Origin: Octopus vulgaris
Taxonomy: Eukaryota
NCBI GenBank assembly: GCA_951406725.2
Contig: OX597815.1
Location: 80,290,001-80,354,000, forward strand
Direction: 5' to 3'
DNA: 64,000 nt
Part shown: piece by piece, positions 11,199 to 62,140 of the stretch
How positions within the stretch are numbered: position 1 is the stretch's first letter
Layout: every line of letters begins with the position of its first letter
Translations under genes and position numbers: made by a program
Notes under the pieces: model-generated
Seen by the model: only the letters and a program-made list of their open reading frames with translations
The model's database searches: none
What the model was told of the DNA's origin: nothing

Positions 11199-11747
11199 AT
11201 GTATCAATATAAAGCGTAATTAACTATTCATGTTTGTTTGTTCCTGTATGAGGAATATACAAGTTAGAATGAAAATAATTCTAAACTTAAGTCAAATTTT
11301 CCGTATCGGTTATCCAAAGTCAGACAAAAATACATTTATTTGCCAAGGATAATATCACAGATCAAGTAATGCAAAAAGTAATTTATATTTGTTTGTCCAT
11401 ACGCTTTTCATATACAGATTGGAGCTATCTTGACAAAAATAAATACATAAAGTGATGAACGTTTGCTTATAGATAGTCTGTAACTGAAATAAATTCACGC
11501 ACTGGGAATCTTATCTCTACGTAAGCTGCGCTTTGTTCCAAAGGATTACTGAAATAATTGAAATACCATTTTTTCTAGTTTTATGGAAGCGAAGATTGCT
11601 GTCGGTCAGAAAGTCCCCGAAATGTCGAAACCTACTTTTCTAGAACATCTCCATGTTCCATTTGGTATATGTAAATTTGCGGCGAGATTACGGTATTTCC
11701 AGAAACCATGTGAAAGCTGTTGTAACACTTGTTATATAAATTCCGAC

Positions 11748-12198
11748 AAGGCGGCGAGCTGGCAGAAACGTTAGCACGCCGGGCGAAATGCGCAGCCGTA
11801 TTTCGTTTGCCGTTACGTTCTGGGTTCAAATTCCGCCGAGGTCGACTTTGCCTTTCATCCTTTCGGGGTCGATTAAATAAGTACCAGTTACGCACTGGGG
11901 TCGATATAATTGACTTAATCCGTTTGTCTGTCCTTGTTTGACTTCTCTGTGTTTAGCCCCTTGTGGGTAGTAAAGAAATAAGAAACGTTAGCACGCCGGG
12001 CGAAATGCGTAGCCGTATTTCGTCTGCCGTTACGTTCTGGGTTCAAATTCCGCCGAGGTCGACTTTGCCTTTCATCCTTTCGGGGTCGATTAAATAAGGA
12101 CCAGTTACGCACTGGGGGGTCGATGTAATCGACTTAATCCGTTTGTCTGTCCTAGTTTGTCCCCTCTGTGTTTATCCCCTTGTGAGTAGTAAAGAAAT
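11748..12198 (+). mobile_element. Young tandem pair of SINE family A with the long CCCCTTGTGGGTAGTAAAGAAATA tail
   Basis: Near-identical units 11748-11980 and 11981-12198; TSD ATATAAATTCCGAC on both sides (~11733 and ~12200). Confidence 0.9.
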
Positions 12199-12590
12199 AT
12201 ATATAAATTCCGACGCATGGAACTACAAGTATGCTCGACAACAGTGAGGTTTTAAAGGTATATTATATAGTGTAACAGCCCATTCCGAAAGAGCTCGAAA
12301 GAAAAAAACGTATCAGCTGTGATAAGTACCACTGAATAAAGACGATTCAAATATCGATACAGGTTACCAAGTTTTTTATATTTTGTTCTGATTTTCGCGA
12401 GGATACTTAAACTACGTGAATTCGAAACCTCCGTTATTTACTTCCAGCTGATGATGCAGTTTGTTAGACACGTTACAAGACCAGCTTATTGGCAGAAACA
12501 CTTCCAAATCTCATTATTATCATTATTATTATTATTGTTGTTGTTGTTGTTTTTGTTTGCTTTAATCTGCATGTTTCTTACAATCACTTG

Positions 12591-12939
12591 CTGAGACACA
12601 CCCAGCGTCCCGGGGCAAGTGAAAGATAAGAGATGTTACAGTAGGAAGATTCTTGGCATCTAAGGTTACTTGTTGTAGCCCGGTGTTAGGAATTTTTCCT
12701 TTCCAACATTCTAATCTGTTGTGTGCATAATAATAATATGCAGTTAGAAGAAAATTCTAACTGGGCCCCGCCTGCAAGGTCATGTGCTGTTTATCTTGAT
12801 ATGAGATCACCATGTCGCGCACATATGATTGTGATGCATGTGTCTAGTGTACCCTTATCAGACGGGTAGTCATGGTGGGTATACTGGGCTTCGTATATTT
12901 TACCCCAGGTTCACTTTGATGGCATGCGCTGCTCTCTCA

Positions 12940-13000
<61 letters not shown>

Positions 13001-13554
13001 GAGTGTGAGAGCAGTTCATGCAATCAAAGTGACACTGGGGTAAAATATACGAAGCCCAATATACCCATCATGACTACCCGTCTGATAAGGGTACACCAGG
13101 CACATGCATCACAACCATATGTGTGCGACATAGTGACCTCATATCAAGATAAGCAGCACATGACCTTGCAAATGGGGCCCAGTTAGAATTTTCTTCTGGT
13201 CGAGTAACCCATCCCGCTCAAAAGGTCCCTGAATAAGGGTTGTTTAAGGATGTTAAACGAAACATCCATGTTGTTTAAAGAGGTGAATTATTCAAACCCC
13301 AAAGAATCCCTCTCAACACATGGCTATGATGCTCCCCCACTACTTCTGCTCGTGATCAGAAAGGCACATATCGTCAGCCACTAAGGGACATGCTCAACAG
13401 GTTACGGTCAAACAGCTGACAAGCAAATCTGTGGTATTGAGCAGAATATTCGCTGTAGCCCATCTTTTATACCAAGACAAAACATTGTACATAACACTTC
13501 CAATCAGTTAAGATCAGAAGCCATGAGAGCCACTGCCTGGTACTGCATCAGAGC

Positions 13555-28512: not shown

Positions 28513-29170
28513 TTTCTAGTCTAGGTACAAGGCACGAAATTTTGGGGGAGGGGACAGTCGATTAGACCGACTTCATTACACAACTAGTGCTTAATTTATC
28601 GACCCCGAGAAGATAAAAGGCAAAGTCGACCCCGGCGAAATTTGAACTCAGAACGTCAGACGAAATACCTATTTCTTTACTACCCACAAGGGGCTAAACA
28701 CAGCAGGGACAAACAAGGACAGACAAATGGATTAAGTCGATTGTATCGTCCCCAGTGCGCAACTGGTACTTATTTAATCGACCCCGAAAGGATGAAAGGC
28801 AAAGTCGATCTCGGCGGAATTTGAACTCAGAACGTAACGGCAGGCGAAAATACCGCTAAGCATTTCACCCGGCGTGCTAACGATTCTGCCAGCTCGCCGC
28901 ATTCTTGAAGATTTATTACGCTACAACATTTGGCCTTTTTCTTTTCTTATTTTCTTCTTTTCTACTCTAGGCACAAGGGCCGAACATTTTTTTGGAAGGG
29001 TAGTCGATTAGATCGACCCCAGTACGCAACTGGTAATTAATTTATCGACCCCGAAAGGATAATAGACAAAGTCTAATTCCTCGGCGGAATTTGAACTCAG
29101 AACGTAAGACAGACGAAATATCACTAAGCATTATGCCCGGCGTGCTAACGTTTCTGCCAGCTCGCCGCCT
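28513..29170 (-). mobile_element. Cluster of SINE family A copies (nested pair 28513-28900 and single copy 28960-29170)
   Basis: Family A cores; the long-tail copy joins the outer copy at GACGAAATAC (~28660-28668). Confidence 0.85.
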
Positions 29171-29374
29171 TTTGAAAGATCTTTTATGCTACAACTTTTG
29201 GCCTTTCTTTTCTTATCTTTTTTTTTTTCCTTGCCAAGTTGTATACCGTCACGTAAACGAATTTTTAGTTAGTGTGTAAAAATCTCAACTTGTGATATAA
29301 TGCTTTTCGAATTAATTATTATAGCGTTTATCTGTTTATTAAGAGATGGGTAAATGCAATGATCTAGAATGATA

Positions 29375-32700: not shown

Positions 32701-33996
32701 TTTCCTTGTTTTTACTGCTAAATGTATGCATGTGTGTGCGTATATGTACACAACACATTCGCAAGTAGATACAAATGTTAAAAACATAATCAAACAAAGA
32801 AGTACGCATGAAAATTAAGTAACACCAATGAAGATATATCTAAGTGAAGAAAATAATTGATGAATTGACAGTTGATATTAGTTACATCTTTGTCTGAGAG
32901 AAATGACAGAGTCAGCTAGAATCCGTGTCTAGCTAGAAATATGTACGCATAATTGTCTACACACACATTTATATGCATTCATAAATAAATATATGAATCT
33001 TAAGAACATATATATATATGTACGACTGTCTAGCCAATGAGAAATATCAGTTTCCTGCTTAGAGACAAGGCTATTTGGAATTTAGAGAACAACAACAGCG
33101 TAGTCTTGTATGTATGTATGTATGTATGTATGTATGTATGTATGTATGTATGTATGTATGTATGTATGTATGTATGTATGTATGTATGTATGTATGTATG
33201 CATGCATGTATATATATATATATATATATGCTCTCTTCTGTTTTTCATTATTTCGTCTGTCTTTACATTCCGAGTTCAAATTCCGCCGAAGTCGACTTTG
33301 CTTTCATCCTTTCGGAGTCGATGAATTAAGTTGCGTACTGTGGTCGATCTAATCAACTAGGCCCTTCCCCAAAAATCTTTGGCCTTATTCCTAGAGTAGA
33401 AAAGAATATTAGACTATTTTGTACAGTCAAGGTTTATGGCGAAAACTTATAATTATATTTTTGAAAATGTATCCCTCGTCTCCGATTCTTAATGTACGTA
33501 GAGTACGTACACGTTTACACACTCCTATGAAACCATGATTCCTAAATTCGCTTCTACTCTAGGCACAAGGTCCAAAATTTTGGGAGAGGGAACCAGTCGA
33601 TTAGATCGAACGCAGTACGCAACAGGTACTTAATTTATCGAACCCGAAAGGATGAAATGCAAAGTCGACCTCGGCATAATTTGAACTCACAACGTAAAGA
33701 CAGACGAAATACCAATTTTTTATTGCCCACCGGGGGCCATAGAAATGGACAGAACAATTGATGGGATCAGTGAAGCGATATGATTTTTTATATAATATGA
33801 CTTTAAAAATTTAAATACAATATATAAAAAAATCGAATGGAATTAACAATACAAAGACAATACAAATGAAGCGATGATCAGGTCACGCTCCGACCCCACA
33901 AGCCCCGATCTACCGCTGGTACCTTTTTTTCCCTTTATTTTCTGTCTATTGACACGGTTCCTTGCACGCACAACACTCGCGCAACCCGGTTTCTTT

Positions 33997-34215
33997 TTAG
34001 TAGGACCAACACCCCACCCCACCTCCCGCCCAACTCGGAGAAACGTATTTCTCGTAGCCGTTCAGGAAGAGGAGCAGATCTCTTGACCCCTTCACCCAGG
34101 TTTCCGTTGCAACAATTGCATCCAAATTTCTCGACCTGATGTCATTTAGGAAGCGCTCTTGCTTCCCACTCGACATCAGGCCACGAACATTTACACAACC
34201 AATGTGAATAGACAT
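33997..34215 (-). pseudogene. N-terminus of LINE ORF2 AP-endonuclease, truncated
   Basis: MSIHIGCVNVRGL...DAIVATETW...GGGV, matching the NVRGL, D..QET and GV motifs of APE. Confidence 0.85.
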
Positions 34216-34639
34216 GACTTACCTGTTAATCAGGATTGTCCGGTGGAGAGGGACCCTCCACCTTTTTTTGATACAGAGTCGGAGGTGGACGGTCTTGGGA
34301 AATAGATTTGTCAAAATCCCGTCTCACTACCGAAACAGAATTATCAGGTGGAGGGGAGTCTCCACCTTTTCCTTTTCTCGCGGGATCGGGGCTGGTAATC
34401 CATGAAATATAGAATTATTAAAGTCTAATCTCATTGATGATACTGTCTTACGGTGTTTGTTTTGTAAAATTCTATGAGTCTTATTTGAGACTTCATACAT
34501 GTCATAGTTGGTAAATTTCTCTGAAAGGTTATCTATTTTTTTTGCAGTCTTAATCAATTGAATGTGTCTCATTAGCTCAGTATCTTTAGTGTATACGGCT
34601 ATTATGCCGTTTTCCTCTTTTTCTCTTCTGGCAGTCTTT

Positions 34640-35770
34640 TTTAGTCGTTATTCTGTTGTAGTCGCCGCTCTCGGTTGAGTTACTGATTGTATTTTCCTTT
34701 TGTTTGTTGTTTTCTTCTCGTCTTTGTCTTCTTCTTCTTCCTCCTCTTTTTCTTTTTTCTCCTCTTCTCCCTCTTCCTCATTTTCCTTGCTGTTCCTTCG
34801 AATGTGGCCTAATTGACCACATAAAAACATCAGGGTTTTCGGCCCTTAACAAACACCATGAGGTCCTCCTCCCCTATTTCAATTTTCTCGGGTATTGCTT
34901 GAATTATTTTAGGGTCAGTTTGAATAAGGAGATTGACTGTTTGACCAGTCCAGTTAGCATTTTCGGTAGCGGTAACCTGGAGGAGAGTAATTTTCTCTTC
35001 CTCTTTAATCTGGACTGCCGCCAACAACCACATAGGATCCTCTTCCGGTGGGACCCTTGTGATTTTAATCCTCGACGTTCTCATCCCCATATGGGTGGGG
35101 ATGAGCTCCCCGTCTTCTATTTTCAACGTTTCTACCGAATGCTTCTGCACAATTTCTTTGTTGGTAAACCTTACTTCCACCGTTCCGAATTTCCTGCCTC
35201 TTGTCAGATAAACCACGTCGCACCAGATTGGTTTCAGGCACTTCTCTACCTTCTCTTCTGTAATTTTTTCAATTTTTCTTTTTTGCAAAAAGTAAGTTTT
35301 GAAAATTATTGTTTTGTGTTTTTCTTCTAGTAGTAATTTCTCCGGTGGTTGAATTTTTACCACGCTGTCATTTATTTGCATCATTTCACTGTATTTCATG
35401 AAATCACACTTATTCGTTGAAAGCAGCCGGGTTCCACCCCCACCTGCCAACGCAAAACTTTTTTTTGGGGTTGTTCAGTTTGGATGCTAGGTACATCAAT
35501 TATTCTTTTAGACACAATACTTTTGTTTTTTGGCAAACTCGGGAATTCTTCTAGTGAAAGTTCTGACGAGCTTTCAGACACATCTCCAAATAACTCATAC
35601 ATTTTGTCATTCTTTTTTGCAACGGGGGAATCCATTATTTCTTTGTTCGTAGTTGGCTCCTCGCCTGACAACATGTAATTCTTCTTTTCAACAGGAGAAA
35701 CAAATATTTCTGTTCTAACGGTAGGCTCCTCGCTAGACGATATTCTTCCCCCCAACGGGGAAATGAGCAA
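34640..35770 (-). pseudogene. Tx1-type ORF1 (RRM-like region plus CCHC zinc knuckle), frameshifted
   Basis: ORFs 35396-35770 and 34830-35450 (YLTRGRKFGTVEVRF...RIKITRVPPE...VFVKGRKP) continue into a degenerate CFLCGQLGHIRRN(S) knuckle and a charged tail. Confidence 0.75.
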
Positions 35771-36065
35771 CGCATGCTACTACAAGCACTTAGTGTTTTC
35801 AAATGAAAACTCCAACAGTTAATTCAGCAATTTAACAAGAAACAACAGTTGTAAGAAACAGCAGTTATTAACAATATTAAGACCAAGATACAACAATTTT
35901 CACTACGAACACATGTACGACGTGTAAGAAACAAAAGAGACAGACGAAATACATATTTCTTTACTACCCACAAGGGACTAAACACAGAGAGGACAAACAA
36001 GGACAGACAAACGGATTAAGTCGATTATATCGACCCCAGTGCGTCACTGGTACTTATTTAATCGA

Positions 36066-36296
36066 AGGCGGCGAGGTGGCAGAAACGTTAGCACGCCGGG
36101 CGAAGTGCTTAGCGGTATTTCGTCTGTCGCTACGTTCTGAGTTCAAATTCCGCCGAGGTCGACTTTGCCTTTCATCCTTTCGGGGTCGATTAAATAAGTA
36201 GCAGTTACGCACTGGGGTCGATATAATCGACTTAATCCTTTGTCTGTCCTTGTTTGTCCTCTCTGTGTTTAGCCCTTTGTGGGTAGTAAAGAAATA
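36066..36296 (+). mobile_element. Full-length long-tail SINE A inserted antisense into another SINE A
   Basis: 17-bp TSD GGTACTTATTTAATCGA at 36049-36065 and 36297-36313. Confidence 0.9.
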
Positions 36297-36947
36297 GGTA
36301 CTTATTTAATCGACCCCGAAAGGATGAAATGCAAAGTCGACCTCGGCGGGATTTGAACTCAGAACGTAGCAGCAGACGAAATACCTATTTCTTTACAACC
36401 CACAAGGGGCTACACACAGAGAGGCAGACGAAATACGGCTACGCATTTCGCCCGGCGTGCTAACGTTTCTGCCAGCTAGCCGCCTTCATGATTCCTAAAT
36501 TCAGTGGGTAAATATGGTTGTGTATATTTTAGTTATCAGTTGCACGCTTATTGACGATATAAGAGGTGTGAGTTCGATTCTCACGTGTACTAAAACCCAT
36601 ATTTTTTTGTCGCGGGGCTTATATTTCCCAATGTTAGATAATTATCTTTAATTAATGTTTACAGCGAAAACAATCATATTTGCGAACAATCTTTGGAGTA
36701 GTCAATCTTTTAAATAACTCATTCACCGAGCAGGTAGTTGATCTAAGCTAACTGATCGAAATGGAAATGTCATCTTTAAAATCGATGGAGCATCTACTCT
36801 GTTTATCGCTTTCACTCCCTCTCCCCTCTCCCTTCAGCAGTCTTTCTATCCAAACACAGACGCCAAGCATTGTTTGCTGTATATTTTATTTATTTGTTCT
36901 TTGTCGTCGTAAACGCTAGAAAACGTATCTAGTTATTGTTATAGAAG

Positions 36948-60573: not shown

Positions 60574-60683
60574 GCATATCTACACACACACACACATATA
60601 TATATATATATGTATACTATAAACTAATAACCAATAAAGTACATAAACAATAAATAGTAAATAGTAGTAAATACTAGTAAATT

Positions 60684-60801
60684 GACTACGCGCGTTTCGT
60701 GGCTATATTTTCAAATAGATAATAATAATAAAATCAATTCGATTTAAAGTTAAATCGATCTACATTTAATTCTATTTAAACATATAGTCACTCATCAGGT
60801 C
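60684..60801 (-). ncRNA. Type I hammerhead ribozyme with long stem II
   Basis: gac-CTGATGA-gtgactata...tatagccac-GAAA-cgcgcg-TA-gtc. Confidence 0.88.
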
Positions 60802-61775
60802 TAATATGCTAATAATAATAATAATAATAAATAAATAAGATAAATGTACGTATCTTAACTTATAATAATTATCAAATAAATATAGTAAAATACGTGTTTT
60901 AGCAATAAATAATCGAAAAACATTTAACAATATTATTTAGCAATATTACTTAAAATGAACACATAACTTATCTTATCGAAGAATTTCTGTCAAGTAAAAT
61001 TTTAAACGTAATACGTAGAACTTAGCATTTATAAGAAATATATCGCTTGAAAAAATGGCGTAAATAAAAATTATAGAATAAATAGATAGAAATATGTATT
61101 TAAGATGTTAAAATGACAAAATGTGTTTTAGCTGTGAGAATAAGAAAAAAATTCACTGCAATATACCATTTACTGAAAAATTTTAAAGTCAAAATAATTT
61201 AAAACTAAAATACGTAAAATACATAATATACATAAATTAAGCTAAATTTCTATAATTTAATCTATTTTCATTAATTTATTTATTTTATAAACATCTTAGT
61301 TTAATCTTATTCTAATTATGTAATATGCACCATATAATATCGTGCTAATTTATATACTTTTCACTACTACAAAATACATTTTACTACTACAAATTAAAAT
61401 TTTCCAGTAAATGGTATATTGCAGTATATTTTTTTTCATTCTCACAGCTAAAATACATCTTGTCATTTTAACATCTTAAATACATATTTCTATCTATTTA
61501 TTCTATAATTTTTATTTACGCAATATTTTCACACGATATATTTCTTATAAATGCTAAGTTCTACGTATTACGTTTAAAATTTTAATTAGCAGAAATTCTT
61601 CGATAAGTTATGGTCTCATTTTAAGTAATATTGTTAAATAATACTGTTAAATGTTTTTCGATTATTTATTGCTAAAACACGCATTTTCTATATTTATTTG
61701 ATAATTATTGTAAGTTAAGATACGTACATTTATTTTATTATTATTATTTTTATTATTATTATTAGTAGTTTGTTA

Positions 61776-61893
61776 GACCTGATGAGTGACTATACTTTTA
61801 AATAGAATTAATTTTAGATCGATTTAATTTTAAATCGAATTGATTTTATTATTATTATCTATTTGAAAATATAGCCACGAAACGTACGTAGTC
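61776..61893 (+). ncRNA. Type I hammerhead ribozyme with long stem II (mirror copy)
   Basis: gac-CTGATGA-gtgactata...tatagccac-GAAA-cgtacg-TA-gtc. Confidence 0.88.
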
Positions 61894-62140
61894 AATTTAC
61901 GACTATTTACTACTATTTATTATTTATTGTTTATGTACTTTATTGATTTTTAGAATAAGGTATTTATAGTATATTTATTTTTTCTATATGGTGCGAATAA
62001 CGTCTTTCACTATTGAATTGCTTAATAGAAGTTTTTGTTTCGATTATATACATATATTATATATTGTGAAACTTGATTTAGAATTGCTAAATTGAATTTT
62101 TCCCTGTAAGTTTGGAATTATATTCCCTACTATTATTATA

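Follow-up and report, generated by a model that had tools for sequence, protein, structure and literature searches.

The analysed window is a 64,000-nt stretch of the Octopus vulgaris contig OX597815.1 (assembly GCA_951406725.2, positions 80,290,001 to 80,354,000; G000:C2:80290001-80354000), which was compared with the assembly as a whole (2.8 Gb, 227 contigs). Between 33535 and 36502, it carries a short interspersed element (SINE) split at one site by successive inserts, among them a long interspersed element (LINE) of a family here termed A. On the minus strand, the stack reads head, target, 39-nt tail, target, headless long-tail SINE unit, target, LINE, target, and short-tail SINE body (Table 1; SINE positions are numbered on the window copy 36067-36296). 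An earlier sequence-only reading had described these nested inserts, and every coordinate it gave checks out, as do the 15-nt and 13-nt target copies said to flank the LINE and the 39-nt fragment. It had missed the outer target-site duplication (TSD) ATGATTCCTAAATTC at 33535 and 36488, which encloses the entire stack.

Compared with near-intact copies, the window LINE is missing ~3.1 kb of its second open reading frame (ORF2), residue ~80 of which is joined directly to the ORF2 C-terminal end; among the decayed ORFs of the window, Pfam matched no relevant domain. The long-tail unit is in turn split by an inverted SINE with the 17-nt TSD GGTACTTATTTAATCGA (36049-36065 and 36297-36313). The likely order of events is an old short-tail host, the LINE, the long-tail unit, and then the tail fragment and the inverted copy; that the LINE preceded the long-tail unit is likely, judged by divergence. 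Rfam matches in the window stay below the gathering scores and stem from the inverted SINE pair, and Logan contigs of four runs contained no empty-site or orthologous bridge for the locus.

Table 1. Features of the stack and of two further SINE loci in the window
Feature	Position	Strand	Basis or remark
Outer TSD of host SINE, copy 1	33535-33549	.	identical 15-mer recurs at 36488
Old host SINE body and short tail, SINE positions 48-end	33550-33713 (end ~33552)	-	blastn
Target copy in host body, 3' of LINE	33698-33712	-	
Family A Tx1-like LINE, internal deletion	33714-35937	-	~85% identity to young full-length copies
LINE ORF2 last codons and 3' untranslated region (UTR)	33714-33975	-	shared tail, AATAAA, no poly(A)
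Deletion junction, 10-nt microhomology	33976-33985	-	overlapping blastn pieces 1954-1963; translation
APE endonuclease (ORF2), N-terminal ~80 residues, frameshifted	33980-34218	-	tblastn, 81% to intact ORF2
ORF1, decayed by frameshifts and stop codons	34330-35776	-	intact relatives: ~519-aa frames with zinc knuckle
Target copy, LINE 5' junction	35938-35952	-	
Headless long-tail SINE unit, positions 48-230, split by inverted SINE	35953-36385	-	blastn
Inverted full-length long-tail SINE at SINE position ~134	36067-36298	+	17-nt TSD
Target copy within long-tail unit	36372-36384	-	
Tail-only SINE fragment, 39 nt, with a 13-nt target copy on each side	36385-36423	-	
Sole SINE head, positions 1-60, A-box-like motif, GCGTAGCC variant	36424-36484	-	blastn
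Target copy at head 3' side	36424-36436	-	head proper 36437-36484
Outer TSD of host SINE, copy 2	36488-36502	.	matches 15-mer at 33535
Independent stack: long-tail copy (2-230), then at position 48 short-tail body	28514-28900	-	blastn
Dimer of long-tail SINEs with its join at the minor site, SINE position 15	11750-12199	+	inner junction 11981

Family A was sampled in 20 LINE loci, the best ORF1 matches other than the window copy itself, from among 14,112 candidates, 150 of which were scored. At full length, it spans 5.35 kb and encodes an ORF1 with zf-CCHC and an ORF2 with APE endonuclease, reverse transcriptase, and zf-RVT; it ends without poly(A), and an AATAAA motif sits 6-7 nt before the 3' junction. 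Full-length copies lie between SINE head and SINE body in independent hosts, and the young near-intact ones show terminal branches of ~0.5% and ORF2 frames of >1000 aa. The exact 27-mer LINE tail occurs 76 times genome-wide and is followed 66 times by NNGTATTT (SINE position 48-49, GTATTT). On inspection, the other 10 proved to be five degenerate on-target junctions, four off-target ends, and one SINE body with a LINE-type end, which brings the on-target tails to 71/76. Among 30 LINE ends for which 3' UTR likeness was the sole basis of choice (313 candidates, 40 of them scored; the window copy is included), the target follows in 27, one is a deleted junction resuming in the SINE, and two are off-target. 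A further tally of 87 ends is biased, as 32 of them were chosen for their junction. Off-target flanks begin with AGTATC, GATATT, GGTATT, GGTGTA, or TGTATA. The hosts of young LINEs are independent, since the SINE bodies behind 33 of them differ pairwise by 9.7%, compared with 1.2% in the last 200 nt of the LINEs themselves. Family A is thus specific for one site of this SINE, as had been claimed from the window.

Several irregular LINE loci were also noted. In three (L043, L047, L185), the LINE tail and a target copy are followed by a common different sequence, which in L047 runs into an ORF1 region of 64% identity, so LINEs also stack on LINEs at the site. Independent internal deletions that keep ORF1 and the 3' UTR and drop most of ORF2, a half-LINE-like form, recur in L081, L040, L090, L207, L241, and L243 as well as in the window (33714-35937). 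In L094 (G000:C3:153115500-153125400), two young LINEs 6.45 kb apart share the same head and flank; this pair, and likewise L050/L054, is either a segmental tandem duplication or an assembly duplicate.

The long-tail SINE uses the same site. Its exact tail occurs 88,449 times, continuing into NNGTATTT at site 48 in 34,449 cases (39%) and into the position-15 motif in 1,707 (1.9%). Because tandem duplication also acts on these units, 39% is an upper figure for independent events. The first unit downstream of young LINEs is long-tailed in 27/33, short-tailed in 3/33, and assigned to neither in 3/33. The site sharing proposed earlier holds; the nucleotides next to both tails, the count by which the sequence-only reading had suggested checking its idea, are non-random genome-wide. 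In a sample of 50 loci centred on listed tails and 20 random 10-kb loci, site 48 follows 55/116 tails in the former and 3/8 in the latter. The random loci hold 36 site-spanning units per 400,000 strand positions, an expectation of ~1e-4 per position that the site follows a tail by chance, and reversed-pattern controls for the junction counts gave 0; chance was rejected on these grounds for LINE and SINE junctions alike. Site use varies with the tail: 93/159 TAGT tails and 5/39 CAAT tails lie at site 48 (P=2e-7, the loci not being a random sample), and by eye count, 76 of the first 100 listed site-48 rows are TAGT, while 82 of the first 100 listed position-15 rows are CAAT.

Within the window, the junction recurs independently at 28668, as had been noted, where a long-tail copy is followed by a short-tail body (Table 1). 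Two SINE copies with similar upstream flanks at 28900-29200 are probably an old local duplication predating that insertion. The earlier caveat that specificity is incomplete also stands: the 36067 insert lies at position ~134, and the 11750 dimer, with its outer TSD TATATAAATTCCGAC at 11733 and 12200, is joined at position 15. A search seeded with L004 for a site-15 LINE family matched an unrelated upstream repeat instead. Antisense insertion at position ~134 (GGTACTT) recurs in the window (36067-36298) and in L050, L054, and L149, yielding long inverted repeats; two further long inverted repeats lie at 12746-13197 (224-nt arms, 4 nt apart) and 60609-61968 (222-nt arms, 916 nt apart). Another abundant short repeat (L271-L300) ends in (CA)n followed by GGATTTTATATAATAGAT.

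Stacks are common and are built of inserts of different age. Outside 10 loci chosen for their arrays, the site-48 junction is present in 48/105 long-tail loci, and these 48 stacks end in a short-tail body (18), a long body (19), or one assigned to neither (11). A second head is kept in only 1/63 stacks (L160), the other 62 being single-headed. In 15/19 stacks of a long on a short unit, the short host has diverged further than the first unit (8.5% compared with 5.7%, P=0.0006), and long-tail inserts are younger than the short-tail copies that they entered. The first unit of these stacks carries long-type bases at 61-63, and the host copy short-type ones.

The junctions themselves point to homology at both ends of the inserts. 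Heads of the GCGTAGCC type precede 38/38 full-length LINE copies (33 exactly), although this variant makes up 18,176/41,755 (43.5%) of exact heads. It is also found in 7/8 truncated young copies with a readable head (P ~0.015, hand-calculated; three more heads are unreadable), so the variant preference is real, beside any RNA-derived leader. At young LINEs, the heads show 6-11% mismatch at positions 1-35, as hosts do, and are near-invariant at 36-60. Position 61 is T in 19/33 of their 5' copies, compared with 3/33 of the 3' copies and 1/14 ordinary heads of that variant; a tree of 36 full-length copies gave no clear link of the 5' T61 variant to LINE lineage. L081 and L087 carry a long-type head above short-type 3' target copies, and the junction G is missing from the upstream TSD copy in L119 and L128. 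As the supposed 5' TSD copy is often unlike the 3' copy, the 5' ends look homology-joined. At the 3' end, the AATAAA of the LINE lies just before the junction, and the T4 terminator is missing in 123/176 SINE units, from which we infer RNAs with target-like ends. The base at position 48 is C in young LINEs and G in older LINEs and SINE junctions. Off-target TAGT SINEs start with AG[GA][TC]A in 30/63. Chimeric ends, A-type on the SINE bodies L183 and L026 and SINE-type on the LINEs L050 and L054, suggest that the family A enzyme handles SINE RNA.

Concerning the tails, the earlier claim of likeness between LINE and SINE is borne out. The SINE tail scores 24-30 in local alignment with family A, 32 with family E, and 22-27 with families B and D, and the maximum in 2000 shuffles was 13-15. 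The further claim, that the tail was captured from the targeting LINE, is not supported, sister family E fitting slightly better. SINE and family A share an insertion site and junction, as expected of partners; a SINE tail taken from the family A 3' end was not found, homology lying only at the level of the radiation. The SINE tail thus probably stems from this LINE radiation, with family E or an unsampled relative a better candidate than A. Folding of five tails gave stabilities not above those of shuffles (z -0.8 to 0.3), which gives no ground for proposing a common stem-loop.

This radiation combines one tail type with different targets: site 48 in A, (TC)n in B, (TATC)n in D, dispersed sites in E, and two single cases. 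All site-48 subfamilies, old ones included, form one clade (SH-aLRT 100). Family B (L221-L230 and L234; e.g., G000:C2:156869400-156879300), whose ORF2 is 61-65% identical to that of A, has near-intact copies with (TC)n on both sides, and family D ends (L102, L112, L139, L012) continue into (TATC)n/(TCTA)n microsatellites. In family E (L241-L270), 2/30 ends lie in the SINE, both at position 15 and both from internally deleted copies; L207 shows an E copy at position 15 in the head upstream of an A copy at position 48. One sister copy (L233:6880) has a TSD of ~19 nt from a different target (CTGGCATRGTTTGTCCGAT), and a further one (L235) sits in a head-to-tail array of itself.

A separate ORF1 with a CCHC knuckle is a feature of the Tx1 clade. 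In family A, PF00098 was found at residues 319-335 of the L084 ORF1, the Atlas neighbours of which are CCHC/ZCCHC3-like, and PF03372, PF00078, and PF13966 on the 1134-aa frame of the natural copy L099; the closest solved relative is the L1 ORF2 endonuclease. Insertion is site-specific with a TSD, as in Tx1 elements (66/76 tails, a 15-nt duplication, and a (TC)n sister). No named Tx1 reference occurs among the 120 listed homologues or their clusters, where a protein of Argonauta hians (61%) is the sole LINE-protein homologue with a name, and the LINE tree comprises own-genome families, unnamed proteins, and one Argonauta protein. Membership of family A in Tx1 is plausible, judged by domain layout and the (TC)n sister. 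The SINE is short and dispersed, with a LINE-related tail and TSDs of 13-18 nt. By eye, it has what we take to be a box-A-like motif at ~11-25 and a box-B-like motif at ~73-85; neither ARAGORN nor Rfam gave a tRNA match to its head. Octopus SINE families named in the literature are OK, OR1, and OR2, of the CORE or Meta superfamily. Because the site lies between these putative A and B boxes, insertion of a headless unit would bring the promoter spacing back.

That LINE and SINE share site-specific insertion into the SINE family is well supported as real and genome-wide. We favour, at a probability of roughly 0.7, the reading that family A and the long-tail SINE occupy position 48/49 of the same SINE, that the LINE enzyme likely placed both, and that the tail comes from the radiation; the SINE likely keeps making landing sites for itself and its helper LINE. 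The sequence-only reading had proposed a self-feeding loop. It is largely supported, site sharing and young inserts in old hosts agreeing with it, but needs three corrections: capture of the tail from A is not supported, part of the growth is tandem duplication, and the 5' TSD copies are unreliable. In the likely mechanism behind the favoured reading, which resembles that of R2, ORF2 would nick a loose Y|GGTAT-type site. RNAs from copies at the site would end in target sequence, pair with the nicked strand, and so sharpen the choice, and the cDNA would join the host by homology in the head (~positions 36-64), so that the insert could do without a head. Host A box and insert B box would then rebuild a whole long-tail SINE and double the site. 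Copies landing elsewhere (~60%) may seed new sites, and recombination between adjacent units may later extend some stacks. A bolder scenario, to which we give less than even odds, is that of a self-targeting SINE, in which read-through target at the RNA 3' end guides insertion, the LINE is specialised on the SINE promoter spacer and tracks the newest head variant, and headless inserts between the A and B boxes convert older copies by homology into new active ones.

The stacks might instead be mainly tandem repeats made by unequal recombination, target specificity being the LINE's only, a possibility that we consider very unlikely. SINE satellites are known (PMC10702118 and PMC11481361), and near-identical neighbours exist here (L158 with nine pairs at 0-0.6%, L157, L155, L153): adjacent long-long pairs are closer than the 1st percentile of random pairs in 8/34 cases at unselected loci and 25/36 in the chosen arrays. 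Later tandem duplication thus accounts for roughly one in four adjacent units and for most long arrays. The remaining 26/34 unselected pairs, however, are as different as random ones (mean 8.5% vs 9.0%), the unit boundary is the very nucleotide that the LINE uses, and 18/48 stacks end in a short-tail host, which has no long tail for duplication to supply. Tandem duplication, which the sequence-only reading had named as what could overturn it, therefore accounts for part of the stacks but not for their origin; as an origin it is largely refuted, and it remains a secondary amplifier. Slimmer still are the odds that long/short dimers and head-LINE-body composites move whole from few masters, which would render specificity only apparent. 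Outer TSDs enclosing whole stacks and the T4 terminator missing in most units would fit such movement, yet the flanking bodies of young LINEs are far more diverse than the LINEs, 5'-truncated LINEs and tail-only fragments occur at the site too, and the terminal short bodies are star-like, with a pairwise mean of 15% and a minimum of 7.4%, so they are not copies of few masters. For the LINE, composite movement is refuted; a minority of SINE dimers may move in this way.

A closer contest concerns how the site is recognised. The APE of family A might read the SINE site by itself, as described for Tx1L, without RNA-DNA pairing, headless units arising via second-nick microhomology. The single site-48 clade, with sisters that use (TC)n, (TATC)n, other sequence, or none, is what this would produce, as is the concentration of truncated young copies in the GCGTAGCC head variant, and target choice is stated to be set mainly by the endonuclease (Kojima 2015, PMC4494074). 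It leaves unexplained, however, why one enzyme should give 87-93% specificity for the LINE and 39% for the SINE, as well as the site use of tail variants, the junction base, and the differences between 5' copy and host; we regard it as unlikely.

Several observations weigh against our favoured reading of a shared LINE and SINE site and the mechanism proposed with it. The SINE tail fits family E no worse than A, and the TAGT variant, which prefers site 48, is further from the A tail than CAAT; as CAAT is nearer to A yet rarely at site 48, tail likeness is no predictor of site use. Judged by the junction base, the young A subfamily is probably not the main SINE mobiliser, and older G-junction A subfamilies would be. 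Outer TSDs are found by a strict test at 11/33 young LINE loci, and one truncated young copy (L218) has the other head variant. Head divergence in long/short stacks (8.7%) lies between that of long-type (7.3%) and short-type heads (15.2%), and short bodies in stacks are younger than those standing alone, which clouds the extent of head replacement. The four steps from nick to promoter rebuilding are read from DNA junctions alone. Finally, the genome already offers ~180 sites per Mb, so the supply of targets sets no limit, and the loop need not drive copy number.

Among known systems, the Tx1-Mar LINEs and SINEU of crocodilians come closest, a target-preferring LINE and SINE sharing one site in an abundant repeat, as here (Kojima 2015, PMC4494074). 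SINEU specificity is 13-90%, tandem SINEU-3 insertions sandwich a TSD, and the partnership was inferred from the common target (PMC4494074). The crocodilian pair uses a third element, Mariner-N4_AMi, as its target, whereas here the target is the SINE family itself; SINEU has no tail in common with its LINE, whereas the tails here are homologous, and the octopus inserts lack a head and would restore the putative promoter of the host. Kibi, Koshi, Keno, and Tx1L are sequence-specific APE-type LINEs that target microsatellites, U2 small nuclear RNA genes, or a DNA transposon (PMC4494074). Kibi resembles our sister family B in inserting into (TC)n, but none of these targets is a SINE, while the target here is a SINE served by the same radiation. 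R2, which has a restriction-like endonuclease and one ORF, is comparable at the junctions. In 28S rDNA, a target-like R2 RNA 3' end raises efficiency and accuracy, and the 5' junction correlates with a leader that derives from the target (PMC6795142); R2 targets a host gene, whereas our target is a SINE and the RNA ends are deduced from DNA. SINE-derived satellites and tandem SINEs likewise form arrays of SINE portions, the longer the more uniform (PMC10702118, PMC11481361). Here, in contrast, units meet at a LINE target site, and two-unit stacks are mostly heterogeneous insertions. L1-Tx1 is listed among cephalopod repeats, with no target stated in the part of PMC8967140 consulted, and Tx1 is not mentioned in PMC9115989. 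The literature searched, which stood apart from Repbase, subscription papers, and the PMC4494074 supplement, held no Tx1 element targeting a SINE, nor this system; the elements may already be annotated in a database. The system works in the manner of Tx1-Mar/SINEU and similar target-specific LINE/SINE pairs, with the SINE family itself as target.

For annotation, it matters that these stacks can be taken for SINE satellites or dimers and that the TSD copy on their 5' side is unreliable. Young near-intact LINEs, together with sisters that use other targets, make target change in APE-type LINEs and the share of RNA-DNA pairing in it testable. If the self-targeting scenario were true, RNA ends would reprogram target choice in a LINE radiation with one tail and at least five targets. 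If the shared-site reading is true, octopus LINE and SINE would form a closed ecology on a large scale (>34,000 exact junctions), in which the parasite is its helper's safe landing site.

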